Shown piece by piece: positions 3,509 to 43,213 of a stretch of DNA of 43,213 nt (the stretch's first letter is position 1; each line of letters opens with the position of its first letter). The notes under the pieces are model-generated. The model saw nothing but the letters and a program-made list of their open reading frames with translations. It was not told the DNA's origin and made no database searches. The translations under genes were made by a program, and so were the position numbers. Source of the DNA: a virus. The stretch lies in IMG/VR virus record IMGVR_UViG_3300009678_001574; one strand, written 5' to 3'.

Positions 3509-3582
3509 GCCCCTATAGCTTAAAGGTAGAGCATTCGCTTGGTATGCGAAAGACATAGGTTCGATACCTATTAGGGGCTCCA
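3509..3582 (+). tRNA. tRNA-Thr (anticodon GGT) with encoded CCA
   Basis: Acceptor stem GCCCCTA/TAGGGGC, D arm GCTT-AAAGGT-AGAGC, anticodon arm TTCGC-TTGGTAT-GCGAA, T arm ATAGG-TTCGATA-CCTAT, discriminator T, then CCA at 3580-3582. Confidence 0.95.
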
Positions 3583-10494: not shown

Positions 10495-11240
10495 TTAATG
10501 TATGTTTGGATGTTTGGGGTAAAGCCGGTGGTGCTGAAGTTGGATACTGGCGCATTGCCCAAAAATTACCACAATACGATTGGAAGTTTACCACAGACGT
10601 AGATCCAACAGCTAATCTAGTAATCTATTCAAACAATCATCGATTTTATGACGCAGCTAAAGCACTAAACATTCCCACCATTCTTCGTACAACTGGCCCT
10701 CGCTCTATAAATATGCCACAACCAGCTGACCTCAAAGCTGTTATTTGCTCTAGCAAGAAGGCTTACGAATTATCTACGCACGCAAACAAACATCTAATAT
10801 ACAATGGCGTAGATTTTAAATGGTTAGACCATGTGAAGCCCATTGAATGTGATTTGCTTTATAGTCCAGCTCGTGTGGGCGTAGGACAGCAAGTAGAAAA
10901 GGCCATTCAATATGCTCAACAAAACAATCGAAATCTGACCGTATTGGGGTCAAGACAGCACTTGGCCGAAGATACTTACGATGTACTAAAAAAGAAATAT
11001 CCTGCCGTATTTTGGACTGGGCTTTTGGATCCTAATCAGGCCCTACGTTTAATGAAAGGATGTAAAGACTATATAGTGCCCACATCGGTTCATGGTGTAT
11101 CAAATGCGGTAATAGAAGCTGTAGCTTATGGCAAGAATATTATTAATCTGGGCGGTGTAGAAGTGCCTGCCAAGGAAGATATAGATATCAATATAACGGC
11201 AGATAAATATGATAAATTGATACAAGAGGCTTTACGATAG
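10485..11240 (+). CDS. Glycosyltransferase family 4-like (GT-B)
   Basis: AGGAE, IYNGVD, FWTG, HGVSNAVIEAVAYGK (the first Glu of the usual Ex7E motif is replaced by His). Confidence 0.8.
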   Translation: MAIINVCLDVWGKAGGAEVGYWRIAQKLPQYDWKFTTDVDPTANLVIYSNNHRFYDAAKALNIPTILRTTGPRSINMPQPADLKAVICSSKKAYELSTHANKHLIYNGVDFKWLDHVKPIECDLLYSPARVGVGQQVEKAIQYAQQNNRNLTVLGSRQHLAEDTYDVLKKKYPAVFWTGLLDPNQALRLMKGCKDYIVPTSVHGVSNAVIEAVAYGKNIINLGGVEVPAKEDIDINITADKYDKLIQEALR

Positions 11241-11265
11241 CATCGAAAATCTATCAATTTTGATG
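11241..11265. promoter_or_regulatory. Imperfect inverted repeat upstream of the RHH-like gene (candidate operator or hairpin)
   Basis: CATC(G)AAAAT-ctatca-ATTTTGATG in one of the few intergenic gaps. Confidence 0.3.
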
Positions 11266-11291
11266 AGTAAGGTATGGACGTGGAGGTCTGT

Positions 11292-11522
11292 ATGGGAAAT
11301 AAACAGATGAGAGTACAAGATGCGGTGCATGAGGAAATCTCTAGACTTTCCAAGGCCTTTGGTGTAGACAAGCAGACAATACTCAATACCTCGATAGCAA
11401 TCATGAAACAAATTTTAGAAACTGGGACAGAAACTGTGGAAGTAATGGACCATGGCACGAAGAAGGTTATCCCTGTGCTATTATTATCTAAAAAGAAAGC
11501 AGGAGTATCAGATGTCAAATAA
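11292..11522 (+). CDS. Ribbon-helix-helix-like DNA-binding protein
   Basis: KQMRVQDAVHEEISRLSKAFGVDKQTIL..SI fits the strand-helix-G-helix RHH pattern. GGAGG SD at 11282 favours ATG 11292. Confidence 0.55.
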   Translation: MGNKQMRVQDAVHEEISRLSKAFGVDKQTILNTSIAIMKQILETGTETVEVMDHGTKKVIPVLLLSKKKAGVSDVK

Positions 11523-11934
11523 TGTAAAACTCAGGCCCAGGTCTTCATTTTGGTTGACACGCCTTTTAGATAAGTTTGGCGGTGGCGTTTACTGGACTAC
11601 GGTAGGCGATACTGTTTATTATCCAGATATTTATGATCTAAAAACAGCCCAATCATTTACAGAAATTATAGAACACGAACAAGTACATTTGGAGCAATAT
11701 AAGAAATATGGCACAGTTCCATTCTTATTTTTGTACGCTTTGGTTTTCTTGCCAGTAGGTCTTTCTTATTTTAGATGGAAGTTTGAGCGCGAGGCCTATT
11801 TGGTTGGAATAGTAAAACACGGCGATAGTATTGAGGAAGTGGTTAAATCACTTTACTATGGCTATGGTTATCCTTGGCCAAAAACTTTAATGCGCAGTTG
11901 GTTTGAGAAGCAATTAGCAAAAGCAAATAAATAA
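11512..11934 (+). CDS. Zincin-like HExxH metallopeptidase-domain protein with a hydrophobic segment
   Basis: IIEHEQVHLEQ and downstream FEREAY. AGGAG SD favours ATG 11512 over 11452. Confidence 0.7.
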   Translation: MSNNVKLRPRSSFWLTRLLDKFGGGVYWTTVGDTVYYPDIYDLKTAQSFTEIIEHEQVHLEQYKKYGTVPFLFLYALVFLPVGLSYFRWKFEREAYLVGIVKHGDSIEEVVKSLYYGYGYPWPKTLMRSWFEKQLAKANK

Positions 11935-12786
11935 ATGACAATCAATATAGTATGTAGTGATCCTACTTGGATATACGGGCAATTTATAGAAGAGTTTAAG
12001 AAGCACTCTGTTTTTAATATTGTTGTAAATGCCAAGAAAGGTTTTGATTTGGTTCATTATTTACCTTACTACGAAGTTCCGGCAGCACCATTTCATCCTT
12101 GTACGTCTTGGCATTCTCACCAAGAACTCACAGAGCCGCTTAAAAATAAGTTTGTTTCGTCAGCTCAAATAGTAGATTACGCCATTAGCCACAGCAAGAA
12201 ATATGCAGACCTATTAAAGGGTTTAGGTATGACTAATATAGAACAAGTTATGCCAGGGGTTGATGGTAGTAAGTATAAACAAAGGGCTATAAGAAAAGAC
12301 AAGCGGGATAAATTGGTGGTTGGGTATATTGGTCGCCAATACACTTCCACCAATCGTAAAAATCCAGGCCTTCTACAGGCGCTAGGAAGGCTTCCATTCG
12401 TCGAATTACGCTCAACTGGGGGCAAGATACCTCCTGACAAAATGCCGGCGTTCTACGCTGATTTAGACGTGGTTGTGAGCCCTGCTTTGATTGAGGGCGG
12501 CCCAATGGCCATGCTGGAAAGCCAAATGGTAGGCGTTCCCTTTATGTGCTATGATAACGTTGGTACGTCTGGTGAATTTGAGACGGGCATAATAAAAGTG
12601 CCATATAACGACGAAAAAGCTTTTACTATGGAGCTACATAAGATATGGTCTAATAAACGACACGAAGAGTGGAATACAACTAAATATATGGGTATGATGC
12701 GCGCCCAAGTAGCAGATTTTACTTGGCGCCGTTTCGTGGATAAGCACGATATAATTTGGGGAAAGATTTTTGATGCAGCTAGATAG
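11935..12786 (+). CDS. Glycosyltransferase family 4 (GT-B)
   Basis: MPGVD, VGYIGR, FYADLDVVVSPALIEGGPMAMLESQMVGVP (Ex7E). Confidence 0.88.
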   Translation: MTINIVCSDPTWIYGQFIEEFKKHSVFNIVVNAKKGFDLVHYLPYYEVPAAPFHPCTSWHSHQELTEPLKNKFVSSAQIVDYAISHSKKYADLLKGLGMTNIEQVMPGVDGSKYKQRAIRKDKRDKLVVGYIGRQYTSTNRKNPGLLQALGRLPFVELRSTGGKIPPDKMPAFYADLDVVVSPALIEGGPMAMLESQMVGVPFMCYDNVGTSGEFETGIIKVPYNDEKAFTMELHKIWSNKRHEEWNTTKYMGMMRAQVADFTWRRFVDKHDIIWGKIFDAAR

Positions 12787-13372
12787 GATAGAAAAACCTT
12801 GTACATTTTGGTACGAAGCGAAGGACGGTACAGAAGTTCCATTTGAATTAACAGAAGGCTTCCCTGAAAAAGAATGGCACGCACAACATTCTAAATCAGT
12901 TATAGTCCAGCATTCTCTTTGTTTTGGTAATCGTAAAGGTGGAGATAAGTGGCCTGTAAAAGTTGTGAAGTGGCTGCTTCATAAGATGCCCGACAGCTGG
13001 AAGAAACCAACTATTGCTTTCAGCATGGGTTCTACAATAAATTGTGGGTATCCAATTGTAAAATATTTGGTGGAGCAGCGTGGTTTTAAGTTTTATGAGG
13101 CTTGTGTAGTGGCTGGAGACTTATGTGAGCGTTGTCTTAATATTTGTTTGTGGGAAACTACAAATGAACCAATCGATCAAAGTTATCTAAAAACCGCCAA
13201 TACTACTTGTTATAATTGTAAATATATAGATGAAGCCTATTTCATCAATAGACAAATCAAAGCGGTTTATGCTACGATGAGAAGAGGCGGCGATATAGTT
13301 AAGGCTTATAAAGAAGGCTATTCAAACGATAATAAGCCAGTTATACGCAAGATGCAAAACGATATAAGATAA
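12770..13372 (+). CDS. Hypothetical Cys-rich protein
   Basis: CERC and CYNC pairs suggest Zn binding. Confidence 0.6.
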   Translation: MMQLDRIEKPCTFWYEAKDGTEVPFELTEGFPEKEWHAQHSKSVIVQHSLCFGNRKGGDKWPVKVVKWLLHKMPDSWKKPTIAFSMGSTINCGYPIVKYLVEQRGFKFYEACVVAGDLCERCLNICLWETTNEPIDQSYLKTANTTCYNCKYIDEAYFINRQIKAVYATMRRGGDIVKAYKEGYSNDNKPVIRKMQNDIR

Positions 13373-13374
13373 CC

Positions 13375-14007
13375 ATGCTAAACAAATTTAATCTCAGTCT
13401 CGACGATTTCAGCCCACATCCTAGGGCGGGGCTCGATTTCGAGTCTATAAAGTGGTGCGATAGGTTAATTGAAATTTATCCTTCCATCAAGATTAATTTA
13501 TTTGTACCATCCGCATATTGTCGTTTGGGTGAGCAGCCATATTATTTGAGTTTAAATAAAGAATGGGTAGAAAGAGTAAAGGCTTTGCCAGTAAACTACC
13601 GTATTAATTTTCATGGACATAATCATCGACGAGTGGATGGCAAAAACCCTAATTCCAATAATGATGAGTTCCAATATCTAAATGAAAATGGTGCAGAGTT
13701 ACTATTAGGCAAGATAGAGGCAGAGTTTAAAAAAGCAAATCTTTCGTATCATAAGACATTTCGTCCGCCTGGGTGGAAGATTAGCAAGGCTGCTATAAAG
13801 GTTATGACTTCAAAGGGTTATAGGATTGCTGGTAGACAAGAAGTTAATTGGGATTTATTAACTGAACCTCCAAAAGAGGGTAATGTAATAGCATATGGCC
13901 ATACTAGTAATTGGACAACTAACTTTTTGAACGAAGAACGATACAATACGATAATGAATTTTTTAAAAGACAAACAATTTGAGTTTGTATTTATAGAGGA
14001 TATGTAA
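13375..14007 (+). CDS. Polysaccharide deacetylase (CE4/NodB-like, DUF2334-type)
   Basis: LSLDDF, FHGHNH, FRPPGW, C-terminal GH. Confidence 0.8.
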   Translation: MLNKFNLSLDDFSPHPRAGLDFESIKWCDRLIEIYPSIKINLFVPSAYCRLGEQPYYLSLNKEWVERVKALPVNYRINFHGHNHRRVDGKNPNSNNDEFQYLNENGAELLLGKIEAEFKKANLSYHKTFRPPGWKISKAAIKVMTSKGYRIAGRQEVNWDLLTEPPKEGNVIAYGHTSNWTTNFLNEERYNTIMNFLKDKQFEFVFIEDM

Positions 14008-21640: not shown

Positions 21641-22356
21641 AACGCTATATATTATTGGGCGGCAGCGGCAGGCTAGGTACCGAATTACAAAAGCATTTAG
21701 ATTGTTGGGCGCCAGATAGTGACACTTTTAATATCACCGACTGTTATGATGATTGGATTGGAATGGATCCACGTAATTATGATGGTGTAATTCTTAGCGC
21801 AGCCTATACAAATGTTTCCGGATGTGAAACTCATCGCAAAGATGCTATAGAGGCAAATGTTATAGGCCCAAAGAATGTTGCTAAATTGTATGATGGGCAT
21901 TATCCAGAAATGAGAATAGTGTATATATCTACTGATTACGTATATGCAGGAAAGACAGGCAATTATAAAGAAACTGATAAGCCAGAGCCTTTTAACTTTT
22001 ATGGTTTTACTAAATTGGCAGGAGAATCATACATGTCTCCTACTAAAGACTTGGTAGTAAGAACAAGTTTTAAACCATTAGGTGATTGGCCGTTCCCATC
22101 AGCATTCACAGACTTGTATACTTCTGCTGATTACGTAGATGTAATAGCAAAAGATATCGCGTTTGTGATAGAAAGTGGAATTACTGGTGTGATTAATGTA
22201 GGCACTGAAAGAAAATCTATTTATGATTTAGCTGTCCAGCGTACACCGAGCGTTGGGAAGATGTCTAAAAGAGAAATCACGAGAGTAAATTTACCAGAAG
22301 ATATTTCTATGGATATAACAAAACTAATCGGATTAAAAAATGGAGAAATCAAATGA
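21637..22356 (+). CDS. rmlD: dTDP-4-dehydrorhamnose reductase-like
   Basis: GGSGRLG, AAYTNV, ISTDYVY.G, YGFTKLAGE; ATGA overlap with rmlB. Confidence 0.88.
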   Translation: MKRYILLGGSGRLGTELQKHLDCWAPDSDTFNITDCYDDWIGMDPRNYDGVILSAAYTNVSGCETHRKDAIEANVIGPKNVAKLYDGHYPEMRIVYISTDYVYAGKTGNYKETDKPEPFNFYGFTKLAGESYMSPTKDLVVRTSFKPLGDWPFPSAFTDLYTSADYVDVIAKDIAFVIESGITGVINVGTERKSIYDLAVQRTPSVGKMSKREITRVNLPEDISMDITKLIGLKNGEIK

Positions 22357-23777
22357 CAGAAGAGAATGAGAATCGAGTCGTTGTTTCTGAAACCGAAGAC
22401 AATGTTCGCAGGGTTAGAAATACGGTCGAAGTTAAACAAGAAAATGCAGAATTAGAGCAAGAGCTTCAGGCCAAACCACCTGTTAAAAAGGCTTCTGTTC
22501 AAGACATACTAAAAGAAAAAGAAGAGCTTAAGAAAAAGAAAAAAGCGGAGGAAGACATGACAGTTATGGTTGTAGAACAACAAGATAGAAGTGTAAACAT
22601 TGGAGTTGTCGGCGTAGGCCAATGTGGTTCTAAGTTGGCCGAAGAGTTTTATGGCTTAGGATATCCTGCTGTGGCTATCAATACCGCTATGCAGGATTTA
22701 AAGCACATTGCTATCCCAGAAGGCAGCAAGTTATTTTTGGATTACGCATTGGGTGGTGCAGCGAAAGACCTCGAAACAGGTAATGCCGCAGCTGAAGAAT
22801 ACGCAGAAGCAATTAGTGATCACGTACAAACTCATTTAGGTGAGTGTGACGTATTGATGCTTACTACGTCAGGCGGTGGTGGTACAGGTTCAGGCTCAGC
22901 AGAGACGATGGTGAAGTTGTTAGCCCAGTTAGGCAAGCCACTTTCGGTTATATTCGTATTGCCTTTGTCCAGCGAAGATGCATTATCCAAGCACAATGCC
23001 ATAGTAACTTTGTCTAAATTGGCAAAGATGGCCAAGGACGATGTAATCAACTCATTGGCCGTTGTAGATAACGCTAAGATTGAATTGATGTTCCCAAGTC
23101 GCAGTATGGCGGATTTCTGGAAGTTAGCTAATAACGCAATTGTAGAACCCCTACATTTGTTTAATAAGTTATCAGCTAATCCATCACCCTATACTTCTCT
23201 TGACCCAATGGATTTCTCAAGACTATTTATCGGTACAGGCGATTGCGCTTTGTACGGTGTGGTTGAAGTTGAGAACTATTTGGAAGATGAAGCTATAGCA
23301 GAAGCAATGCTAACCAGCGTAGAAAATGGTTTATTGGCAAGTGACTTCGACCTTGGACAAACTCGTTCAGCCGGTATCATTATCACTGGCACCAAGTCTG
23401 TCCTAGAGAAAGTTCCAGCAACTAATATCGAATACGGATTTGCTATGGTAAGCAAAATATGCAATGAGGGTACGAGAGTATTTCGAGGTGTGTATGAAGT
23501 TCCTGGCAAAGAAAACGTATTGCGTGTATATAGCTTCTTCAGTGGTTTAGGTTTGCCAGAAGAGCGCGTAAAAGAACTCAAGGCAGAAGCAGAGCGTCAT
23601 ATGGAAGTTCTGAAGAACAAGGAAGAAAGCAGAGCAACCACTATGACCATTGACATTGGTAAGACACAAACAGTCAGTGCCGCGGATGCTCTTCACAAGA
23701 AAATTACTCAAAAACACTCAGCAATGGGTAAGCTAACCAATAATGCTAAGAGAGTAATTGATAAGCGCAGAAAATAA
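22353..23777 (+). CDS. Tubulin/FtsZ-superfamily GTPase (PhuZ/TubZ/CetZ-like) with charged N- and C-terminal extensions
   Basis: GVGQCGSKL (T1), AINT, GGAAKD (T3), GGGGTGSG signature (T4), VDN, LDPMD (T7). Confidence 0.93.
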   Translation: MTEENENRVVVSETEDNVRRVRNTVEVKQENAELEQELQAKPPVKKASVQDILKEKEELKKKKKAEEDMTVMVVEQQDRSVNIGVVGVGQCGSKLAEEFYGLGYPAVAINTAMQDLKHIAIPEGSKLFLDYALGGAAKDLETGNAAAEEYAEAISDHVQTHLGECDVLMLTTSGGGGTGSGSAETMVKLLAQLGKPLSVIFVLPLSSEDALSKHNAIVTLSKLAKMAKDDVINSLAVVDNAKIELMFPSRSMADFWKLANNAIVEPLHLFNKLSANPSPYTSLDPMDFSRLFIGTGDCALYGVVEVENYLEDEAIAEAMLTSVENGLLASDFDLGQTRSAGIIITGTKSVLEKVPATNIEYGFAMVSKICNEGTRVFRGVYEVPGKENVLRVYSFFSGLGLPEERVKELKAEAERHMEVLKNKEESRATTMTIDIGKTQTVSAADALHKKITQKHSAMGKLTNNAKRVIDKRRK

Positions 23778-28889: not shown

Positions 28890-29073
28890 AAATGTCGGAA
28901 GAATAATAAGAGTTATTTGGAATAAGGAAACGGACGACGTTCAAGTCGTCATGGAAATTACTGATCCGCAATTCAAAGCTCGTGTAATACATAATAAAGA
29001 CTTACAGGACGTATTAACTTTTGAGGGTAAAGACGTAATGGTAGTAGCATCAAAGAGCAGAAAACATGAGTAA
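28879..29073 (+). CDS. Hypothetical protein (about 64 aa)
   Basis: Fills the gap between dnaB and the HAD gene; start uncertain (28846-28879). Confidence 0.55.
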   Translation: MTSKNVGRIIRVIWNKETDDVQVVMEITDPQFKARVIHNKDLQDVLTFEGKDVMVVASKSRKHE

Positions 29074-29896
29074 GAGATTAGAGATAATTATTTTTGATAT
29101 GGATGATACCATTTCAGAAAGTAAAACTGATGTCAAAGAGGAAATGGCTCACGCTATTTCTAATTTATTATCCATAACTCAAGTGGGTATTATTTCCGGC
29201 TGTGCTTATACGCAATTTACTAATCAACTTTTACAGCCGCTAGAAATGTATTGCCCGGATATAAAAAACAAATATATGTATGATCCAGAAGATAGAGCTA
29301 AAGGCTTGTATTTAATGCCGTCGTCGGGTGCTCAGTTATATCATTATCAAAACGATACTTGGGTTCAGCGCTATAATGAAAATTTGCACTTGCGTGAAAA
29401 GGTAGAGATATATAAAGTCTTTGAGTTAGCCTGTGAGGCAACTAACTTACACCCTTTATATACTGGTGAGTACGGTGAAATAGCAGAAGACCGCGAAAGT
29501 CAGATTACTTTTTCTATGTTAGGTCAGAAGGCTCCATTAGAAGTTAAGAAACCTTATGATCCAGATCAATCGAAACGACTTCGTGTTGCTTCTTGGATGA
29601 ACGGATATTTTGCTGGCAGTGGTTCTAATTTTGAAGTCACTGTAGGTGGCGCAAGTTCTATGGATGTTACGCGCAAAGGCTCTAACAAGGGAGCTGGCGT
29701 AGATAAGCTAATAGCCTTCCTAGACTTCATACCAAAAGAACGCATATTATTTGTTGCAGATGCTTTATTTCCCGGTGGCAACGATTACTCAGTTAGAAGC
29801 TTGGGTATAGATTGTATACAGGTAAAGAACCCTGAAGAGACCCTAGAAGTTATTAATTGTGTATTAGACAAGGAGAAAAGAGATGCCTCTGTTTAG
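29066..29896 (+). CDS. HAD-IIB hydrolase, alpha-phosphomannomutase-like
   Basis: FDMDDT, ISG, EDRESQITFS, GGASSMD, NK, ADALFPGGNDY. Confidence 0.85.
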   Translation: MSKRLEIIIFDMDDTISESKTDVKEEMAHAISNLLSITQVGIISGCAYTQFTNQLLQPLEMYCPDIKNKYMYDPEDRAKGLYLMPSSGAQLYHYQNDTWVQRYNENLHLREKVEIYKVFELACEATNLHPLYTGEYGEIAEDRESQITFSMLGQKAPLEVKKPYDPDQSKRLRVASWMNGYFAGSGSNFEVTVGGASSMDVTRKGSNKGAGVDKLIAFLDFIPKERILFVADALFPGGNDYSVRSLGIDCIQVKNPEETLEVINCVLDKEKRDASV

Positions 29897-30146
29897 TTAT
29901 GGGTGTGTTAGTTGCGAATTTGTTGTGGAAAAATTTCAACATAATGCGGTTGATAAGCCGCAGTTAGTTTGTCCAGACTGTGATGGTTATGAATTTGAGC
30001 GTTTATTCTCATCTCACCATAACAGGACTATTCTAAATTCAAAAGAAACATACTCGCAGCAGATTAAACCCGATATTGATAGAATTTCCAGAAATATAAG
30101 TAAGGGCAAAGATAAGGATTTTACTGATGTTTATGGCGAAAAGTAA
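29883..30146 (+). CDS. FmdB-family zinc-ribbon protein
   Basis: MPLFSYGCVSC…CPDC…ERLFS; AAGGAG SD. Confidence 0.8.
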   Translation: MPLFSYGCVSCEFVVEKFQHNAVDKPQLVCPDCDGYEFERLFSSHHNRTILNSKETYSQQIKPDIDRISRNISKGKDKDFTDVYGEK

Positions 30147-30179: not shown

Positions 30180-32153
30180 ATGAGCAAGATTATGGTAATC
30201 AATGGAGGAATTGAGATGGCTAACGAAGAAGGACAACATGATATTTTTGCTGATATAGCAGAATTCACAAAAAACACCAATGTAGAAACTTGGCGTGGAA
30301 CCTTTAGGGATTTTATACCGTTGGTACAAGCAAATCCCAAACTGGCGCAGCTTTCACATGCGCGCATTTTGGATATGATTGAGAGCGCGGGAACAGAATA
30401 CGATGAGGCAGATAAGAACAAACAACTACCAACATATAAGTTCTTTGCGAACGATTTGTTTGGTGTTCAAGAACCAATTAGAAAAGTAGTTAAATATCTT
30501 AAAGCAGCTGCATCTGGCTCTCAGGTCGGTCGCAGAATTCTCTTGCTATACGGGCCCACTAGTTCGGGTAAGAGTCAATTGGCCACACTTTTGAAGAATG
30601 GCCTTGAGCAATGGACACGCACCGAAGATGGTGCTGTGTATGCCATAGAAGGCTGTCCAATCCACGAAAATCCTCTTAACCTCGTTCCACATGGCCTTCG
30701 TAAGAAGTTCAGAGAAGACTATGGTATTAAGATAGATCCACTTGCTAGACTTTGCCCTGTTTGCCAATTTAAATTGGAAAATGAAATGGGCGCTGATTGG
30801 CTATCCGTGCCGGTAAAGCGTATATTGTTTTCAGAAGCAGCGCGCACAGGTATTGGAACCTTCCTACCAGGCGATACTAAAAATCAATCTATTACCGAAT
30901 TAGTTGGTTCTGTCGACTTTAGTAAGTTGAGTGAGTTCGGCGTTGAATCCGATCCACGCGCTTACAAGTTTGACGGTGAATTAAACGTAGCTAATCGTGG
31001 TGTAATGGAAATGATTGAAATGCTTAAGGTTGATCCAAAGTTCTTGTATGTTCTATTAACCTTAGCACAAGAAAAGACTATTAAGACTGAACGCTTTCCG
31101 CTGATATACGCGGACGAATTCATCCTAGCACACACCAATGAAACTGAATACACTCGTTTCATTGGCGACAACAAGATGGAAGCCTTACACGATCGTATTA
31201 TCGTAGTTAAGTTTGGCTATAACGTAATCTTGAATGAAGAGGTTAAGATATACGAGAAGTTGGTTAATGAGGCTGATTTCGGTAGCGTTCATATAGCCCC
31301 GCTAACTTTAAAGGTAGCATCGATGTTTGCCGTTCTAACTCGTTTAGAAGAAGCAAAAGACCAAAATCTTTCTTTGTTGAAGAAGATGCAATTGTATAAC
31401 GGTGAGGACGTCGAAGGCTTTACTCAAGAAGACATCAAGAATATTAAATCTGATGTTGCCCGCGAAGGAATGATTGGCATCAGCCCACGTTATATCTTTA
31501 ACTGTGTGGCCGAATGCTTTACCAAACATGACTTAAATTGTATTACTCCGATAGACGTATTACGCGCTATCAAAGAAAACTTTGAAAGCAGTGCTAAATT
31601 CTCCAAAGATGACATCGATCACTTTGATGAATTGCTAACCGTAGTAGTTGAAGAATATACTAAGATGGCAAAGAATGAAGTACAGAAAGCTTTCTTCGTA
31701 AATTTCTCTTCTGAAATTAAGAATCTATTGAATAACTACATTGATAACGTCGGTGCCTATTTGGATGACCGCGAAGTTGTAAATGAATTCGGCGAACACC
31801 ACGAACCAGATGAGCATTTGATGCGCTCTATTGAAGAAAAGGTTGGTGTTAGCGAAGCAGCCAAGGATAGCTTCCGTCAAGAAGTGTATCGTAAAGTAAT
31901 TAAGTCTAAAGCCGAGAACGGTGACTTTGATTACAAGGCACATGCCAAATTGAGAGAGGCTCTAGAACGTCAGTTGTTTGATGAGCGCAGTGATGTTATT
32001 AGACTCACCGTAAGCTCAAGAAACCCAGACCCAGAAGCACTTAAGAAGCTTAATGGCGTAATTGCGACGCTTGTAGATCAGTATGGCTACAACGTCGAGT
32101 CTGCTAACCAACTATTACGTTATGTTAATAGTTTAATGTCTAGAACCACTTAA
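30180..32153 (+). CDS. prkA: PrkA/YeaG-family AAA+ ATPase (annotated serine protein kinase)
   Basis: LLLYGPTSSGKS, CPIHENPL, ESDPRAYKFDGELNVANRG, EMLK, AHTNE, EALHDR, GISPRY. Alternative start at 30216. Confidence 0.95.
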   Translation: MSKIMVINGGIEMANEEGQHDIFADIAEFTKNTNVETWRGTFRDFIPLVQANPKLAQLSHARILDMIESAGTEYDEADKNKQLPTYKFFANDLFGVQEPIRKVVKYLKAAASGSQVGRRILLLYGPTSSGKSQLATLLKNGLEQWTRTEDGAVYAIEGCPIHENPLNLVPHGLRKKFREDYGIKIDPLARLCPVCQFKLENEMGADWLSVPVKRILFSEAARTGIGTFLPGDTKNQSITELVGSVDFSKLSEFGVESDPRAYKFDGELNVANRGVMEMIEMLKVDPKFLYVLLTLAQEKTIKTERFPLIYADEFILAHTNETEYTRFIGDNKMEALHDRIIVVKFGYNVILNEEVKIYEKLVNEADFGSVHIAPLTLKVASMFAVLTRLEEAKDQNLSLLKKMQLYNGEDVEGFTQEDIKNIKSDVAREGMIGISPRYIFNCVAECFTKHDLNCITPIDVLRAIKENFESSAKFSKDDIDHFDELLTVVVEEYTKMAKNEVQKAFFVNFSSEIKNLLNNYIDNVGAYLDDREVVNEFGEHHEPDEHLMRSIEEKVGVSEAAKDSFRQEVYRKVIKSKAENGDFDYKAHAKLREALERQLFDERSDVIRLTVSSRNPDPEALKKLNGVIATLVDQYGYNVESANQLLRYVNSLMSRTT

Positions 32154-32476
32154 TGAATGATGCCAGTATAGATATTTTTAGGGAAGAAATGCCCAACCTT
32201 AATTTCTTTAAGGTCGGGATAGGCCGGAGAGAGCCTAGATTATTCGCTAGTCTAGAAGATTCATTAGGCATAAAGACCGTAACATCATTTGGTTTTGATT
32301 TAGTAGAATCAATAGACGTTCTGGATAGAATAGAAGATGAGACTTTAATAATACTTCTTTCTATGGCCCATGGTGTAATGTTTGCTGAATCAAGAATGTG
32401 TTATTTTCTTCCAAAACAATTTGAACAACTCAAAGAAGACTATTTGGTTATGAAACTTTCTGGAGTCAAACAATGA
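32153..32476 (+). CDS. Hypothetical protein (107 aa)
   Basis: TAATG- and ATGA-coupled between prkA and yeaH. Confidence 0.6.
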   Translation: MNDASIDIFREEMPNLNFFKVGIGRREPRLFASLEDSLGIKTVTSFGFDLVESIDVLDRIEDETLIILLSMAHGVMFAESRMCYFLPKQFEQLKEDYLVMKLSGVKQ

Positions 32477-33648
32477 CTGATTCGCTATTAGATATTTGGT
32501 CTATGCGCAAGCGTGGTAAAAGAGACCATGCTCGGCATTCCCAGCGCGTCAAAAAAGCTATCAGAGAAAATCTAAAAGACCTGGTTTCTGATTCTAGTAT
32601 TATTTCTTCCGACGGTAAAAAGAAAGTTAAGATACCTCTTAAGTATCTAGATAACTATCGTTTTAAGCACCAAGAAGATAAAAATAATGAAGGTGTTGGG
32701 CAGGGCGATAAGAAGCATAAACCCGGTGATCCTATTGCGCACGATGGAACCGGACAAAAGGGTTCTGGCAAAGGCCAACCTGACAATCAAGCGGGCGACG
32801 AAGTCTATGAAGAAGAGATTGAAATAGCTGACATCGTTCAAATGATGTTAGAAGACTTGGGTCTCCCGTGGCTAGAATCTAAAGATAGCTCTGTTGAAGT
32901 AGAAACAGAGAATATTAAATTTACAGATATTTCAGAAGTAGGTCCGCTTTCAAACGTGGATAAACGCAGAACAATCTTTGAGAACCTAAAAAGAAACGCA
33001 AAGAACGGCGATGCAACTATAAAGAATATCCGTCCAGAAGATTTGCGATATAAAGTATGGGATGTTGAAAAAGAATATCATTCCAATGCGGCAGTATATT
33101 TTCTAATGGATCGTTCAGGTAGTATGGATGATGAGAAAAAGTATATTGCTAAATCATTCTTTTTTTGGTTGGCTCACTTTTGTAAAACCAAATACAGCCA
33201 AGTAGAATTAATATTTATAGCACATGATACTACAGCTAGAATAGTTCCAGAAGAAAACTTTTTTAAGATTTCTAACAGCGGTGGAACGATGTGTAGCTCA
33301 GCCTTCAAGCTTACACACGAACACATAATAGCTAATCATCCACCAGAATTGTGGAATAACTATGTATTCTCTTTCAGTGACGGCGATAACTGGCCCACTG
33401 ATAACGAAGAATGTATTAAAATAGTTAACAAGCTATTAGAAGTATGCACAGCCGTTGGTTATGGAGAAATTAACACGGAAAGTTTTGTTGGAGCAATGCC
33501 TGCCGGTGCTAATCCAGCTTGGTCTACCTTACATCAAGAATTTTCTAAGAGCGTAACTCACAAAAGATTTATGACTGCTGCGATTTCCAAGAAAGAGGAT
33601 ATCTACTCCTGCCTAAAACAGTTCTTGGGGATCAAAAATGATGGATGA
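32473..33648 (+). CDS. yeaH: YeaH/YhbH (DUF444) vWA-domain protein
   Basis: D..RH..RVK.AI, Gly-rich linker, EDLGLPWL, EDLRY, MDRSGSM, GGTMCSSA, SDGDNW. Confidence 0.93.
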   Translation: MTDSLLDIWSMRKRGKRDHARHSQRVKKAIRENLKDLVSDSSIISSDGKKKVKIPLKYLDNYRFKHQEDKNNEGVGQGDKKHKPGDPIAHDGTGQKGSGKGQPDNQAGDEVYEEEIEIADIVQMMLEDLGLPWLESKDSSVEVETENIKFTDISEVGPLSNVDKRRTIFENLKRNAKNGDATIKNIRPEDLRYKVWDVEKEYHSNAAVYFLMDRSGSMDDEKKYIAKSFFFWLAHFCKTKYSQVELIFIAHDTTARIVPEENFFKISNSGGTMCSSAFKLTHEHIIANHPPELWNNYVFSFSDGDNWPTDNEECIKIVNKLLEVCTAVGYGEINTESFVGAMPAGANPAWSTLHQEFSKSVTHKRFMTAAISKKEDIYSCLKQFLGIKNDG

Positions 33649-34027
33649 GCACCAGTTAGCACGACATATAATTACATTAGACAGAGATATAGCAGACAGT
33701 GTAGATATAATAAGAACCACTGCACCCGAATTTTTGGTAGAGAGATATAAAGACTGCAATATTGATTGTCTAGATATCTTTCTTGCTATCATAGATGCTA
33801 AGATACCAGATCTATTTTCTGATGTTAAAAGTGTATATATAAAGTATCTTGATAAAGATGCTCTATATGCAATATGGGCCTCATATATAGTAGGCAAGCC
33901 GCTTGAAGTAGATAACGAAAGCTTCAAGGATGAGATAGAGGGCGCAAAAAATCGATGGCTTATGTCAGTGGTTATGTCTATGGATGAAACTATGGACCTA
34001 ATAGAGGCTGGAGGCTTCGATAACTAA
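33638..34027 (+). CDS. Hypothetical acidic protein (129 aa)
   Basis: Overlaps the yeaH stop. Confidence 0.6.
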   Translation: MMDEHQLARHIITLDRDIADSVDIIRTTAPEFLVERYKDCNIDCLDIFLAIIDAKIPDLFSDVKSVYIKYLDKDALYAIWASYIVGKPLEVDNESFKDEIEGAKNRWLMSVVMSMDETMDLIEAGGFDN

Positions 34028-34489
34028 ATGAAAGAAACAGACCTAGAGTTGTTCAGGTGGAATTGGTATAGATTACGAGTAAGGGACATAAAAGCAAATC
34101 GCAACGCCGCACTTGGACTACGAACTTTTTGGTCTGAGTACGGCGTTTTTGTTTCTACGCTCCCCAGACAATCTGGCAAATCTGAAATGATAATAAAAAT
34201 GGCCGAAGCATTAGAAAATGATGGAGAGAATTTTCTAATCATAGTATTGAATGAAAATATGAAAAGACATCTCTCTGGAATGGCACCTAATATATATCCT
34301 GGCAAAATAAGAACCAATCCGGGAGCGATGATGTCTTTCTATCGTCTTGGTGCAGACAGCAGACCGGAAGACACACATATACTAATTGACGAGTATGAAT
34401 ACTTACATAATCAAGCTATGGGATGGATAATGAATGAAAATTGGAAATCCATATCGTTGGTTGGAAGTTATAAATTGAGGGCAACATGA
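34028..34489 (+). CDS. Minimal single-domain P-loop NTPase-like protein
   Basis: Walker A-like LPRQSGKS, Walker B-like ILIDE, motif-III-like LVGS; 153 aa; GGAGG upstream. Confidence 0.65.
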   Translation: MKETDLELFRWNWYRLRVRDIKANRNAALGLRTFWSEYGVFVSTLPRQSGKSEMIIKMAEALENDGENFLIIVLNENMKRHLSGMAPNIYPGKIRTNPGAMMSFYRLGADSRPEDTHILIDEYEYLHNQAMGWIMNENWKSISLVGSYKLRAT

Positions 34490-35907
34490 GCAAAGAAGAC
34501 GTAATCCAAAGAATTAAGGACATAGAACAACTGGCCAAGGACTCCGGTTTAGATTTCTTTCCAACCGTATTTGAGTTTGTTAATCGAGACATTATGCTCG
34601 AAGCCTGTTCCTATGGTTTGCCGGTCCGTGCTCGCCACTGGTCTTATGGGCGTTCCTACCAGCATCAGAAAGTATATGGCGAGATGGGCTTCTCAAAGGT
34701 TTATGAGATTGTCTTTAATAACAATCCATCGTATGCTTTTCTTTTAGATACCAACCAAGACATCATAAACATAATGGTCGGAGCACATGTCTTCGGTCAC
34801 GTTCATTTCTTTAAGCACAATGCGATGTTCCAAGGCTCAGACCGCAATATGATTCATCGTGCAGCAGAACGAGCTGCAAGAGTAGATACTTATATCGCTC
34901 AATATGGCCTCGAAAAAGTTGAACATTTGATGGATATTGCATTCTCAATTGATAATCATATTGATTGGCATAAAGGACTTTTTAGACGCAAGTATCCTGG
35001 TAAAGAAATAGTTGAAGAGCGTAACCGTAAAGATGAGTTCTCAGATCTATTAAATATTGGTGATAATAGTAGAAGAAGTTTAACGCTCAGAACTACTGGC
35101 GGCAAGCTCCCACCACATCCTGAAAAAGATTTGTTGTGGTTTTTAGTTAACTATGCACCAATGGAAGAGTGGGAAAAGGACGTTCTAGCTATTATTCGTG
35201 AAGAGTCCTATTACTTTTATCCAATAGTAATGACCAAAATTATGAACGAAGGCTTTGCTTCATTTTGGCACGCTGAACTTATGTATAAGTACAACGCAGT
35301 TAAGGAAGATGAGTATATAGAATTTTGTAAGTGTCATTCTGGAGTCGTAAATCCGGGCAATAGATTTAATATCAATCCCTATTATTTGGGCTTTAAAGTA
35401 TTTACTGATATACGCGAGAAATGGGACGAACTATACAAGCAAGGCAAATCAGAAATTAATGGAATACAAAAGGTTCTCAAGGTCGCCGCGGAAGAAGATG
35501 ACGCCTCCTTTTTAAGGAACTACCTAACGAAGGAGTTGGCTAGTGAGATTGGACTTTTCAATTACGGCTACAAGTTAAAACGTGAGCCGGGACTTGATGA
35601 AGATCAGTTATCTGAAGAGCACGGTATTATAGAACTAAAGGATAGAGACCTAAATAAAGTTATAGAAAACATAATTCGTCCAACAATAAATTATGGCGCA
35701 CCTCTCATTACAGTTGATGAAATAGATGGCGATACACTGATAATAAAACACTCAGATATATTTGGGCCACTAGATGAGAAGTATACCGAAAAGACTATGG
35801 AATACCTATATGAATTGTGGGGCGGACCTGTTGAACTGAAAACCTATGACGACGACAAAAAAGAAATAGTATATTGTTTTGATGAAAGTGGATTCGATTT
35901 GTTATAG
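34486..35907 (+). CDS. spoVR: SpoVR/YcgB family protein
   Basis: GLDFFP, YGLP.R..HWSYG, YEIV.NNNP, AHVFGHVHFFKHN, YFYP…TKIMNEGFASFWH, NPY.LG. Confidence 0.95.
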   Translation: MSKEDVIQRIKDIEQLAKDSGLDFFPTVFEFVNRDIMLEACSYGLPVRARHWSYGRSYQHQKVYGEMGFSKVYEIVFNNNPSYAFLLDTNQDIINIMVGAHVFGHVHFFKHNAMFQGSDRNMIHRAAERAARVDTYIAQYGLEKVEHLMDIAFSIDNHIDWHKGLFRRKYPGKEIVEERNRKDEFSDLLNIGDNSRRSLTLRTTGGKLPPHPEKDLLWFLVNYAPMEEWEKDVLAIIREESYYFYPIVMTKIMNEGFASFWHAELMYKYNAVKEDEYIEFCKCHSGVVNPGNRFNINPYYLGFKVFTDIREKWDELYKQGKSEINGIQKVLKVAAEEDDASFLRNYLTKELASEIGLFNYGYKLKREPGLDEDQLSEEHGIIELKDRDLNKVIENIIRPTINYGAPLITVDEIDGDTLIIKHSDIFGPLDEKYTEKTMEYLYELWGGPVELKTYDDDKKEIVYCFDESGFDLL

Positions 35908-35922
35908 GAGGAGCATTCCCAC

Positions 35923-36087
35923 ATGGGCATTTGGAAAACTACCAAGACCCCCAATAGTAAGCAAAAAGCAGAAATTGACATTAAAGCCCTCAAATTACGT
36001 TTGCAGTCGCTAGTCAAAGAGGGTAATATAGAGATAGTACAGCTTGCTATTGAGTCATTGCTTGACGAGCTAGAAGAACAAAAGTAA
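35923..36087 (+). CDS. Small hypothetical protein (54 aa), not in the ORF track
   Basis: MGIWKTTKTPNSKQKAEIDIKALKLRLQSLVKEGNIEIVQLAIESLLDELEEQK*; AGGAGGAG upstream; fills the gap. Confidence 0.65.
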   Translation: MGIWKTTKTPNSKQKAEIDIKALKLRLQSLVKEGNIEIVQLAIESLLDELEEQK

Positions 36088-36099
36088 AAAGGGGTAGAT

Positions 36100-36675
36100 A
36101 TGTATAAGATTGGTATTATTGGTCATAATCCTGAAGATTTTATTGACCAAGATAATGCTACTCGTTCTATTGATCGAGTCATTGAACTATTGTTTCACCA
36201 ATATGGTAGAATGAATCAATCGCTCGACAACGACGGTATATTCTATAATCATAATACTAGCCTCGTATTAAACATACTGGGCAATGTCGGCGCAGGTATA
36301 TGGGCAGGAAAAGCTTGTAAAAAGCACGGTGTTAAATATCACTTGTTCCTACCTTTCCCTCACGAAACAACTTCACAATTTTGGTATGAAAGCCAAAAGG
36401 CAGAATTGAACGACTTATTTCTGTCTTCCTATGAAACTTCCACCCAATCATTTGATCAAGATGAAGGGAGCGCCTTTGATAGTGCAAATGCGGCCTTAGT
36501 GGACAACTCTAATTTCGTTGTCGCATTTTGGGAACATAAGAGAATAGGAAAGACATTCGATGCAATTAAATACGCTTTAAGCACGAGCAAATTAGTTTTA
36601 GACGGCATGAATGATTTAAAACTAATTACAAATTCAGACTTACAAAAAAGGTTAGAACATGGAAGAGACAAATAA
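36100..36675 (+). CDS. SLOG-superfamily protein, YpsA/DUF1273-like
   Basis: IGIIGHNP (cf. TGHRP), GNVGAGIWAG (cf. GA.GVD.WA), LFLPF…W, N.ALVDNSNFVVAFW…GKT…IKYA. Confidence 0.75.
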   Translation: MYKIGIIGHNPEDFIDQDNATRSIDRVIELLFHQYGRMNQSLDNDGIFYNHNTSLVLNILGNVGAGIWAGKACKKHGVKYHLFLPFPHETTSQFWYESQKAELNDLFLSSYETSTQSFDQDEGSAFDSANAALVDNSNFVVAFWEHKRIGKTFDAIKYALSTSKLVLDGMNDLKLITNSDLQKRLEHGRDK

Positions 36676-37300
36676 TATTTCGCACACAGTACCGCACGCA
36701 ACACCATTCGTAGATTTTAGTATGCAATTCAGCCTCGCCAAGAATAACGAGCGAGTAGAGCGCTGTATATTTGAATCGCTTCAAGAATTGGCAAGAGAAG
36801 TTGCTTTGGGCAAACAAAAATCATTAGGCTCTATAGTTGTGCTAGGTGATTTTGAAAAATTTGGCCCTAGAATAGATGGCATGGTTCAAATGAAGCCAAA
36901 GCAAAACCCTGTTGAAAGTTTAAGAATATTTGATTCGACACATGGTGCAGCTTACATTAAAGAATTTTCTATTTCGCCTTTCGATGGTGCGATGGTAGTA
37001 GATAAGACTGGCCAAATTATAGGCGCAGGTGTGTACTTGGTTGTAGAAGATCCAACACTAGATACGCCAGAAGATTGTGGTACGAGACACAAAGCCGCTG
37101 CCAGTTTCTCTAGAAGGGACGATGTAATTTCCGTATTGACGTTGAGTGAAGAAACCAACACAGTACGAATTTGGCAACATGGCAAGGTCAAAGAAGTGTA
37201 TAGAACAAATGAGGTGGTTGCGGAAGAGAGAGAAGAAAAGGCAACCAAGAAAAAGAAAGCCAGCGGTAAGATGCAGACAGTTGAGGAGAGTAAGGAATGA
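36659..37300 (+). CDS. Stand-alone diadenylate cyclase (DAC/DisA_N) domain protein
   Basis: ELARE…LGSIVVLGD, FDGAMVV (DGA), GTRHKAA (RHR-like), LSEETNTVRIW..G. Confidence 0.88.
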   Translation: MEETNNISHTVPHATPFVDFSMQFSLAKNNERVERCIFESLQELAREVALGKQKSLGSIVVLGDFEKFGPRIDGMVQMKPKQNPVESLRIFDSTHGAAYIKEFSISPFDGAMVVDKTGQIIGAGVYLVVEDPTLDTPEDCGTRHKAAASFSRRDDVISVLTLSEETNTVRIWQHGKVKEVYRTNEVVAEEREEKATKKKKASGKMQTVEESKE

Positions 37301-37941
37301 GCCAGATAATATCAAATTCAGAAGTAATGAAGTTGTTCAGAGATGCAGATGAAATCAAAGCTGACGCACAACTTACAGAGGCTCAAAAGAAAGACAAAGT
37401 TGAAAACATTCATAACAAGATAATCAAAGAGTTATCTTTTTTAGTTTACAACGGAGCTAAGTCTTATAGAAAATTTCCCAACTACGAAGACCTCGTACAA
37501 GAAGGTTTCATAGGCTTGTTAAAAGCTGTAAGAAAATTCGAACATGCACGATTTCCAAACTTTTTCGTGTATGCTGAACAATGGATAAGACACCGCATCA
37601 AGAACTCTGCGAGTCGCTTCGATGTAGTGTATAATCCTAATAAGCAGAGAGTAGTGTATGCCGATGACCTTGGAGACAGTGTTGAAGAGGAAACGGAATT
37701 TACACCAGAAGATGTGTATTTTGAAGTAGAGAAGAAGGAAAGCATAAAGAAAGTTTTAGACGAATTCCCAGAACGCGAGCGAGAAATTGTGAAAAGAATA
37801 TTTGGATTAGACGATCATTCTCCACAGACCTTACGTGAAATAGGGCCCGATTTTGATATCACCTATGAACGCATTCGTCAAATTAAGAACAATGTAATTT
37901 CTAAACTAAGAAAAAATCAGAGACTTAATGATTTATGCTAA
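37297..37941 (+). CDS. RNA polymerase sigma70-family factor (regions 2 and 4)
   Basis: EDLVQEGFIGLLKAVRKF, F..YA..WIR, and region 4 REREIV…FGL…TLREIG..FDITYERIRQI…KLR. Confidence 0.93.
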   Translation: MSQIISNSEVMKLFRDADEIKADAQLTEAQKKDKVENIHNKIIKELSFLVYNGAKSYRKFPNYEDLVQEGFIGLLKAVRKFEHARFPNFFVYAEQWIRHRIKNSASRFDVVYNPNKQRVVYADDLGDSVEEETEFTPEDVYFEVEKKESIKKVLDEFPEREREIVKRIFGLDDHSPQTLREIGPDFDITYERIRQIKNNVISKLRKNQRLNDLC

Positions 37942-42006: not shown

Positions 42007-43213
42007 ATGAGCAAAATTTATATTCTAGATACAAATGTTTTATTGCACGACCCAAAATCACTTACAGCATTTGCAGACAATGAAGTAGTAATTCCTCTAG
42101 TAGTATTAGACGAATTAGATAAGAAAAAAGTAGGACAGGATGAAGTAGCACGAAACGCAAGAATGGCAATCAGAACTCTTGATCAAATGAGAGAACTGGG
42201 CAGCATTCATAAAGGCGTTAAGACTACTCAAGGTGGTTTAGTAAGAGTTGAGTTGAACCATCGTGAGTTTATACCTCAAGACTTAGATCCTAGCCGCGCT
42301 GATAATCGTATTATTAGTGTAGCACTTGGGTTGATGAAAGACCACCCAAGACGTAAAGTTACAATAGTTACTAAAGACATAAACCTACGAGTAAAGTGTG
42401 ACGCGCTTGAAGTCTATGCAGAAGATTATGATACTGATTCTGTAGCAGACGACGCCAACGCTATATTTTCTGGCTTCTCTGAAATCGTAACTACAACCGA
42501 AATGATAGACAATCTGTACAAAGATGGTTTTGTTGATGCATCTGAGCTGGGTTCATTCCAGCCCAATGAGTATGCCTTATTAAGATCGGGCGTACAAAAG
42601 CATTCAGCCCTGGTTAAACTCCAAGGCACCAACTTTGTTAAGATTCGCCCATCAACGAGTGTTTGGGGCATTTCACCCAGAAATAAAGAACAGGCTTTCG
42701 CTATGGATGCTTTGTTCGACCCAAATATTAAATTGGTTACTATGATTGGTCGTGCCGGTTCGGGTAAAACCCTACTAGCGGCGGCCGCTGGTATTTCCCA
42801 GATTATGGATAGCCACACTTATAGGAAGTTAATCTTAACACGTCCTATCCAGCCATTGGGTAGAGACATCGGCTTCTTGCCAGGTGATATTGATGATAAG
42901 ATGAAGCCTTGGATGGCTCCTTTGCAGGACAATCTTGAATTGTTGTTCTCTGAAAAGGGCAAGCACTACATTGACATGCTCAAAGAATCTGACCAGATAG
43001 AAATTGAGGCCCTAACCTATATAAGAGGGCGTTCTATCCCACGGTCATTCATCATTGTCGATGAGTGCCAGAACTTAACCTTACACGAGGCCAAGACTAT
43101 TTTGACTCGTATTGGTGAAGGTTCAAAGGTAATTCTAACAGGTGATATCTTACAGATAGATAATCCGTACATTGACTCTGTTGATAACGGCTTGTCTTGC
43201 GTAGTAGAGAAGT
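42007..43213 (+). CDS. phoH: PIN-domain PhoH-family ATPase (PhoH2/YlaK type), truncated by the window end
   Basis: Translated by hand (absent from the track): MSKIYILDTNVLLHDP, VLDELD, ADNRI, TKDINLRVK, GRAGSGKT, IGFLPG, IRGRS, VDECQN; AAGGAG SD at 41990. Confidence 0.93.
   Translation, partial: MSKIYILDTNVLLHDPKSLTAFADNEVVIPLVVLDELDKKKVGQDEVARNARMAIRTLDQMRELGSIHKGVKTTQGGLVRVELNHREFIPQDLDPSRADNRIISVALGLMKDHPRRKVTIVTKDINLRVKCDALEVYAEDYDTDSVADDANAIFSGFSEIVTTTEMIDNLYKDGFVDASELGSFQPNEYALLRSGVQKHSALVKLQGTNFVKIRPSTSVWGISPRNKEQAFAMDALFDPNIKLVTMIGRAGSGKTLLAAAAGISQIMDSHTYRKLILTRPIQPLGRDIGFLPGDIDDKMKPWMAPLQDNLELLFSEKGKHYIDMLKESDQIEIEALTYIRGRSIPRSFIIVDECQNLTLHEAKTILTRIGEGSKVILTGDILQIDNPYIDSVDNGLSCVVEK

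Follow-up and report, generated by a model that had tools for sequence, protein, structure and literature searches.

A conserved PrkA-DUF444-SpoVR trio with a zinc-ribbon partner in huge tubulin-encoding phages, followed in one lineage by a putative minimal diadenylate cyclase

The PrkA/YeaG-YeaH-SpoVR genes are among the most widespread bacterial gene sets of unclear biochemistry. In Escherichia coli, YeaG (renamed SpdA) is needed for the global, largely non-specific proteolysis that starvation induces and that yields amino acids and ATP, a link that dates from October 2026 (PMC13684143). Bacillus subtilis PrkA has been reported as an ATP-dependent protease (PMC9512850), and PrkA of Bacillus anthracis is required for sporulation and osmotic-stress resistance (PMC13001217). 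The genes yeaG, yeaH and ycgB display tight cofitness in six bacteria (bioRxiv 10.1101/072470), which argues that their proteins act together. The trio is also found in large and huge phages in GenBank, including the Thermus phages phiYS40, TMA, phiLo, MN1 and Lalka, the Ralstonia jumbo phage RsoM2USA, and the huge phages LR756511, LR745206, LR756502 and LR756504, where the three genes are adjacent and annotated as serine kinase, SpoVR and so on. A survey of 224 jumbo-phage genomes makes no mention of PrkA, SpoVR or DisA-type cyclases (PMC7824862). Here we analyzed a stretch of 43,213 nucleotides (nt), IMG/VR record IMGVR_UViG_3300009678_001574 (hereafter the window), which carries the trio within a feature of ten genes at 30180-37941 on the plus strand and whose source is a huge uncultured tubulin-encoding phage. 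The original prediction, made from the sequence of the window, had described the ten genes as a single signalling operon. We conclude that they are a composite of separable modules, not one signalling operon, and that the trio, together with a zinc-ribbon (Zn-ribbon) gene in front of it, belongs to the old and tightly conserved core of a huge tubulin-encoding phage lineage.

The trio and its upstream partner are as follows (aa, amino acids).

29883..30146, plus strand: Zn_ribbon_8 (FmdB-type) protein, 87 aa (PF09723, 37.9 bits against a cut-off of 34.4)
30180..32153, plus strand: PrkA/YeaG(SpdA)-family AAA+ protein, 657 aa (PF08298, 7e-113, and PF06798, 3e-69, both nearly full length)
32473..33648, plus strand: DUF444 (YeaH/YhbH) vWA-like protein, 391 aa (PF04285, 3e-95, full length)
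34486..35907, plus strand: SpoVR/YcgB-family protein, 473 aa (PF04293, 8e-105 over residues 6-367; SpoVR_C, PF24755)

The names PrkA, DUF444/YeaH, SpoVR, SLOG, DAC (diadenylate cyclase) and sigma, first given from the sequence alone, were borne out by Pfam matches and structure models. The Walker A motif of PrkA (GPTSSGKS, residue 125) is intact, DUF444 carries a motif, DRSGS at residue 213, that resembles a metal-ion-dependent adhesion site, and the SpoVR_C match scored 29.4 bits against a cut-off of 27.6. With 283 bits against the enterobacterial YeaG model NF011999 (cut-off 576), the PrkA protein is a member of the family and not a YeaG equivalog; DUF444 likewise scored 415.7 bits against TIGR02877 (spore_yhbH), under the equivalog cut-off of 468. 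Like the cellular prkA-yhbH-spoVR module, the window holds three full-length families with motifs intact in the usual order PrkA-DUF444-SpoVR, and the trio genes adjoin one another, as they do in 38 of the 80 nearest cellular loci. In contrast to the cellular module, the copy in the window is viral and belongs to a PrkA clade of its own, approximately 50% identical to the nearest cellular PrkAs (from Acidobacteriota, Chloroflexota and Bacillota). It also differs in having a Zn-ribbon gene in front, a DAC gene behind (0/80 cellular loci) and ORFans, open reading frames (ORFs) without relatives, between its members.

Related loci were collected by scanning IMG/VR with a PrkA alignment, which matched at least 274 stretches, and 80 viral loci were examined. 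A scan with a DAC alignment gave 18 loci, to which seven contexts from a metagenome protein collection were added. Alignment-based scans were required, as the single DAC sequence recovered one contig already in the set and the single SLOG sequence recovered nothing. The cellular comparison set consisted of the 80 nearest loci, with neighbours sought within 8 kb, and all loci were scanned with profiles made from the window genes. Three groups of phages are distinguished below, and individual loci are cited by L numbers. Group 1 is the clade of the window (PrkA 73-79% identical). Group 2 has in common with the window a tubulin-UvsW-DnaC-DnaB backbone, with PrkA 55-59% and DnaB 32-38% identical to the window proteins. 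Group 3 comprises huge phages like LR756511 (PrkA 34-36% identical), whose backbone is not in common with groups 1 and 2.

No other part of the region is conserved as well as the trio, which ranks above DnaB, UvsW, tubulin, sigma, DAC and SLOG. Because synonymous sites are saturated at such divergences, conservation was compared by identity ranks. Within group 1, identities were 73-79% for PrkA, 69-79% for DUF444 and 70-76% for SpoVR, followed by DnaB (55-64%), sigma (51-61%), DAC (47-68%) and SLOG (33-43%). The same rank of PrkA over DnaB holds between group 2 and the window. DUF444 and SpoVR adjoin PrkA in nearly all of the 80 viral loci. That the trio is conserved above the phages' own replicative helicase suggests that huge phages depend on it. 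An intein and a probable intein lie in trio genes of two IMG/VR relatives (L016:14603-17218 and L052:9929-12958). The 871-aa SpoVR of relatives such as L016 contains an intein (Intein_splicing, 4e-12) with a LAGLIDADG endonuclease, a PrkA of 1009 aa in relatives contains a probable intein with a weak Intein_splicing match, and in several relatives mobile-looking helix-turn-helix/DUF7487 genes are interposed among the trio genes. In carrying inteins and mobile-looking insertions, the trio resembles indispensable, highly conserved phage core genes.

The Zn-ribbon gene lies 33 nt upstream of PrkA, just outside the ten-gene feature as it was first delimited. Its product contains two CxxC pairs, at residues 8 and 30, and the CxxC...CxxC ribbon together with a C-terminal DI.YGE-like tail is common to the Zn-ribbon proteins of groups 1, 2 and 3. 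A Zn-ribbon gene immediately precedes PrkA in 6/6 group-1, 15/16 group-2 and 20 group-3 loci of phages, whereas not one of the 80 cellular loci showed it. The PrkA tree unites groups 1 and 2 in one clade (support 100) and places group 3 as sister to PrkAs of the Bdellovibrionota/Myxococcota cellular type; the Zn-ribbon is thus present in phage lineages from different parts of the tree. We regard it as the best-supported additional partner of the trio, specific to phages among the loci compared. The phage versions of the module therefore name partners that cellular operons do not show, namely the Zn-ribbon and, in one deep lineage, DAC, and they offer a compact natural system for dissecting it.

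The trios of GenBank phages (covered by PHROG families 22605, 19072 and 35217) differ from that of the window in being 27-37% identical to it and in having no DAC, SLOG or sigma gene beside them. Among these phages, the Zn-ribbon is common to the LR756511 group only. The island in LR756511 consists of the Zn-ribbon, the trio and two small ORFs, and in LR745206 the trio forms a plus-strand island flanked by minus-strand genes. The Thermus phages differ further in gene order, which is DUF444-SpoVR-(x)-PrkA, and groups resembling them show DUF444-SpoVR-PrkA with no accessory genes. Five other phage lineages retain the trio and have neither DAC nor SLOG nor sigma genes near it. The original prediction had also suggested that the combination of genes was undescribed. 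For the trio this does not hold, as it has been annotated in phages since phiYS40. For DAC the claim stands, in that we found no description in the literature of a phage-encoded diadenylate cyclase or of a phage DAC beside the trio, and both the phage DAC family and the Zn-ribbon partner of the trio seem to be undescribed.

The remaining genes of the ten-gene feature are listed below.

32153..32476, plus strand: o107, an ORFan insert between PrkA and DUF444
33638..34027, plus strand: o129, an ORFan insert
34028..34489, plus strand: o153, a P-loop-like protein of 153 aa between DUF444 and SpoVR
35923..36087, plus strand: o54, a small helical protein with no family match, always preceding the SLOG gene
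36100..36675, plus strand: divergent YpsA-clade SLOG protein, 191 aa (PF06908, 1.2e-5, 25.8 bits)
36659..37300, plus strand: minimal DAC-domain protein, 213 aa (PF02457, 3e-15, 56.2 bits against a cut-off of 27)
37297..37941, plus strand: sigma-70 factor, 214 aa (region 2, PF04542, 5e-11; region 4, PF04545, 1e-10)

All ten ORFs are present as contiguous plus-strand genes at 30180-37941, and the overlaps or gaps of at most about 15 nt between them were confirmed (junctions of -1, -4, -11, 0, -4, +15, +12, -17 and -4 nt). The flanks are also as first described, with replication genes (DnaC-like and DnaB) upstream and ribonucleotide reductase (RNR) downstream. Scans for promoter-like and terminator-like sites in the window gave none above shuffled controls, which agrees with the reported lack of an evident terminator and means that operon limits cannot be set from the sequence. 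Tight same-strand packing extends over the whole window (58 plus-strand genes, median gap -1 nt), so positions 30180 and 37941 are not natural boundaries; the stretch free of gaps of more than 33 nt starts at the DnaC gene, at position 26776.

Gene order was compared among the relatives. Group-1 loci follow the order Zn-ribbon, PrkA, DUF444, SpoVR, o54, SLOG, DAC, sigma, RNR, with DAC missing from L002. Group-2 loci follow the order Zn-ribbon, PrkA, DUF444, SpoVR, DAC, (sigma), RNR, with no o54 or SLOG gene, and L023 lacks DAC. Group 3 has Zn-ribbon, PrkA, DUF444 and SpoVR with no DAC. A more distant relative, L014, displays DnaB, Zn-ribbon, an o54-like ORF, SLOG and DAC with no trio and no sigma. 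No homologue of Zn-ribbon, DAC, SLOG or o54 was found within 8 kb in the 80 cellular loci. The independent losses and differing combinations indicate at least five separable units: the Zn-ribbon, the trio, o54 with SLOG, DAC, and sigma. The expectation that adjacency would be kept in related phages was borne out, as the order is conserved and not shuffled. This conservation is not specific to the ten genes, however, since the order belongs to a longer collinear block, tubulin-UvsW-DnaC-DnaB...RNR-PhoH. Tens of kilobases are collinear in these phages, and adjacency alone therefore carries little weight.

In the DAC protein, two N-terminal helices precede the DAC core and a charged tail follows it; the DAC and SLOG genes overlap by 17 nt. 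Its best NCBIfam match is DacZ (5e-12, 45.6 bits against 430), and every NCBIfam DAC model falls far under its cut-off. The structure model (pLDDT, the predicted local distance difference test, of 86) retrieves DacM, DisA or CdaA as all top Foldseek matches in the PDB, with E-values of about 2e-7. The motifs DGA, TRH and TLSEE are invariant in 25 members of the family. The third residue of the RHR motif is Lys in the window (RHK) and Ile in group 2 (RHI), with K, I, R, L, M and T found across the family. In its single DAC domain, short N-terminal helices, DGA/RH/SEE motifs and DAC fold, the protein is similar to the minimal cyclases PanS (of PanDA/Panoptoo), CdaS, CdaM and DacZ, the likeness to PanS being drawn from its published description. 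It differs from them in being phage-encoded, in having no effector partner of the 2TM-beta type (two transmembrane helices) and in not conserving the third RHR residue. The protein most probably synthesizes cyclic di-AMP (c-di-AMP) or a cyclic dinucleotide akin to it in the infected cell; some minimal DACs that were described of late can yield cyclic UMP-AMP (cUA) instead (bioRxiv 10.64898/2026.08.10.743927). If the phage DAC is active, phages write c-di-AMP-type signals besides sponging or degrading them, which would bear on PanDA/Panoptoo defence.

In all 18 IMG/VR loci of the DAC family, DAC lies directly behind SpoVR or behind o54-SLOG, and the metagenome protein collection holds 94 clusters of the family. 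Its two losses, in L002 (group 1) and L023 (group 2), left the trio in place. Two outliers, L014 and L011, have DAC without the trio. The L011 DAC (69-kb metagenome contig, 10001-13555) is the most divergent member at 41% identity, and its neighbours are RNase H, a DUF2201 vWA/peptidase-like protein, a MoxR-type AAA_5 ATPase and ClpB. The DUF2201 and MoxR-type genes make a second pair of AAA+ and vWA genes beside DAC, unrelated to the first, and a YAcAr SLOG gene lies 3.5 kb upstream. GenBank phages gave only two weak DAC matches, both from faecal metagenome bins. The persistence of the DAC-trio link over deep divergence is suggestive of coupling, not decisively so.

The SLOG protein scores 25.8 bits, less than the PF06908 gathering score of 27.7, and had no sequence match in the PDB. 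Its AlphaFold (AF2) model (pLDDT 87) best matches B. subtilis YpsA (2nx2; E 1.3e-7; template modelling score 0.64-0.68), followed by DprA, TM1055, ShosA and the ThsA SLOG domain. A profile search for SLOG recovered 1098 representative clusters, and 28 of 40 sampled match PF06908, down to 2.7e-27. The assignment is thus to the family of YpsA (Brzozowski 2019, PMC6459960), from which the window protein differs by a sequence identity of about 14% and by its constant position after o54 and, mostly, before DAC. YpsA-like SLOG domains occur in 31% of jumbo phages (Iyer 2022, PMC9503650). SLOG domains are known nucleotide-ligand binders (PMC9503650), and the protein is likely a nucleotide-ligand binder or processor. 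Over-production of YpsA blocks FtsZ assembly in Bacillus (PMC6459960), so the phage protein could act on cell division instead of reading the cyclase product. Homologues of o54 are present in all group-1 loci, with a plausible one in the trio-less L014, and the o54-SLOG pair is confined to the subclade of the window and L014.

The sigma factor exceeds the TIGR02937 cut-off (84.2 against 42.9 bits) and matches phrog_351 (8.6e-31), and no sporulation-sigma equivalog model reached its cut-off. It is present in 6/6 group-1 loci and in only some group-2 loci. The proteins o107, o129, o153 and o54 gave no family match in Pfam, PHROGs, NCBIfam or PADLOC. Both o107 and o129 are unique to the window, with no homologue in any related locus. 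The o153 protein has Walker A-like (PRQSGKS) and Walker B-like (LLIDEY) motifs and is found in the window, L002 and L003 only, at 30-34% identity; L009, L010 and L015 have no o153, and their DUF444 genes abut SpoVR. We rejected o107, o129 and o153 as parts of a system, since they are variable inserts that are unique to the window or limited to three genomes.

We assign a rough probability of 0.5 to the reading in which the trio carries out a YeaG/SpdA-like bulk turnover of host protein in support of a long infection and DAC is an addition specific to the lineage. The comparisons establish which genes these are, their folds, their conservation, the limits of the modules and the restriction of the Zn-ribbon and DAC neighbours to phages; the biochemical activities and the physiological role are all inferred. 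By analogy with the cellular proteins, a phage-adapted PrkA/YeaG(SpdA)-YeaH-SpoVR set, with the Zn-ribbon in front and placed between replication and nucleotide-supply genes, would form an ATP-driven machine that triggers or performs broad turnover or remodelling of host cytoplasmic proteins. The freed amino acids and energy would go into a long, resource-hungry infection. The trio would in this way be the protein counterpart to the adjoining nucleotide salvage; the nucleotide-supply genes after the module are RNR, dUTPase/DCD and PhoH, with thymidylate kinase and synthase in relatives. The lineage would have gained a minimal DAC, with the DGA, TRH and SEE motifs of its catalytic core kept, behind SpoVR; the subclade of the window would have further inserted o54 and a YpsA-type SLOG before DAC, and the sigma factor would be a separate phage transcription gene. 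DAC itself may regulate the trio, reset the osmotic and cell-wall physiology of the host, or supply a decoy signal for guards of the PanDA/Panoptoo type, and we do not rank these roles.

Several points weigh against this explanation. The SpdA study covered yeaG alone, and not yeaH or ycgB (PMC13684143). PrkA of B. anthracis displayed negligible protease or kinase activity in vitro (PMC13001217), so PrkA may contribute to proteolysis indirectly. L014 keeps the Zn-ribbon but not the trio, and the link between the two is thus not strict. The product of DAC is uncertain because the second Arg of RHR is replaced. The DAC-trio adjacencies count as one evolutionary event and not as independent support, because they come from a single lineage with long-range synteny. 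Finally, the host may be one that makes no use of c-di-AMP.

Other explanations divide the same genes differently. A tighter version of protein turnover would make the Zn-ribbon, PrkA, YeaH, SpoVR and DAC one virus-specific machine, in which a Zn-ribbon adaptor retargets starvation proteolysis and the dinucleotide activates or reports it. We consider this unlikely; if it were true, it would give the first known case of a second-messenger synthase wired to a PrkA module and the first demonstration that a virus can set off autophagy-like bulk breakdown of protein in bacteria. Less probable again is the single circuit of the original prediction, an integrated sensor, writer, reader and output in which the trio senses starvation or dormancy of the host, c-di-AMP is written by DAC and read by SLOG, and sigma provides the response. 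In its favour, every close relative with these genes has them in the order trio-o54-SLOG-DAC-sigma, from a 158-kb to a 481-kb contig, the genes overlap or lie within 15 nt of each other, and SLOG domains bind nucleotide ligands. The circuit nevertheless comes apart in the relatives, where DAC (L002, L023), SLOG and o54 (group 2), sigma (many group-2 loci) and the trio (L014, and also L011) are gained or lost separately, while the five other lineages have the trio without accessory genes. Furthermore, the 40-kb region is collinear throughout, variable inserts account for three of the ten genes, and the sigma factor belongs to a generic sigma-70 type of phages. No observation links the module in particular to dormancy sensing or to sporulation. 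For the trio to manipulate endospore formation in a sporulating Firmicutes host seems very improbable: DUF444 does score best against the Firmicutes YhbH model, and prkA and spoVR mutants show sporulation defects, but that score is under the equivalog cut-off and the PrkA tree does not nest the phage clade within Bacillota. The trio was also rejected as a marker of a sporulating host, given its presence in Thermus and Ralstonia phages and in many non-sporulating bacteria.

Two further possibilities concern DAC apart from the trio. As neighbours with a counter-defence role, DAC could supply c-di-AMP or cUA that keeps PanDA/Panoptoo guards off, and SLOG could bind or degrade immune nucleotides such as variants of cyclic ADP-ribose. 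In such a guard, the minimal DAC PanS constitutively yields a product that holds the effector PanE in check, and phage sponges that deplete the signal trigger PanE (bioRxiv 10.64898/2026.08.10.743927, PMC13640721); the phage protein is also a single-domain DAC. Viral SLOGs are mostly of the YpsA clade and have been proposed to act against host nucleotide signalling (PMC9503650), and o54, SLOG and DAC persist in the trio-less L014. A Tad6-family protein (PF25188) is encoded about 10 kb downstream of DAC in L013 (L013:12617-12770), which bears on the idea of DAC offsetting a nucleotide sponge. On the other hand, a host guard system is a supposition, and DAC sits in a block of replication and nucleotide-metabolism genes and shows the conservation of a core gene across a deep lineage, whereas rapid turnover is usual for anti-defence genes. 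The 18 IMG/VR copies all follow the trio directly, and PADLOC (2023 version, older than PanDA) gave no match for DAC or its neighbours, nor is there an adjoining membrane effector gene. We therefore view counter-defence as possible but doubtful. It is somewhat less credible that DAC resets host physiology through a burst of c-di-AMP that shuts potassium and osmolyte uptake or affects the cell wall, the stringent response or lysis timing. Such roles of c-di-AMP are established (10.64898/2026.08.10.743927), and the authors of the PanDA study raise phage perturbation of c-di-AMP pools as a possibility; c-di-AMP also modulates Listeria prophage induction (bioRxiv 10.64898/2026.05.13.725036), and the DGA, TRH and SEE motifs of DAC are invariant. 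Against this, many diderm bacteria have no c-di-AMP receptors, no phosphodiesterase or receptor was recognised nearby, and L002 and L023 lost DAC while keeping the remainder.

The viral origin of the window, presumed in the original prediction, was confirmed by its genes (TubZ/PhuZ-like tubulin, UvsW-like helicase, DnaC-like protein, DnaB, RNR and PIN-PhoH) and by its relatives. Closest among these are two viral contigs in IMG/VR (158 and 206 kb) and two contigs from metagenomes (481 and 327 kb), and the IMG/VR relatives span 158-395 kb. The 395-kb relative has a CheckV completeness of 100% and a terminase match; when Terminase_6N was sought in the contigs of four relatives, this one complete record gave the only match. 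The CheckV completeness of L003 (G001; 206 kb, 25%) and L002 (G002; 158 kb, 39%) indicates genomes of several hundred kilobases for the clade. IMG/VR classes G002 as a provirus, which looks doubtful for such a lineage. A megablast search of the region against GenBank phages returned no close relatives. No lead to the host came from the nearest cultured phages, the sigma matches were scattered, and the nearest cellular PrkAs are from several phyla at similar identity.

Other features of the window are listed below.

3509-3579: tRNA gene (Rfam RF00005, 69.6 bits), in the glycan-gene part of the window
22353-23777: TubZ/PhuZ-like tubulin (PF00091 and TubZ-like_C)
29066-29896: HAD/phosphomannomutase-like gene, between the DnaB and Zn-ribbon genes
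42007-43212: PIN-PhoH fusion protein, open at the window end

The tubulin is 42-44% identical to those of group-2 phages, and its sole match in a cultured phage is gp138 of Bacillus phage G (25% identity). The HAD/phosphomannomutase-like gene is found in L003, L010 and L015 and is missing from L002 and L009, making it a variable gene within a conserved block. The PIN-PhoH fusion gene is kept 3' of RNR in all relatives.

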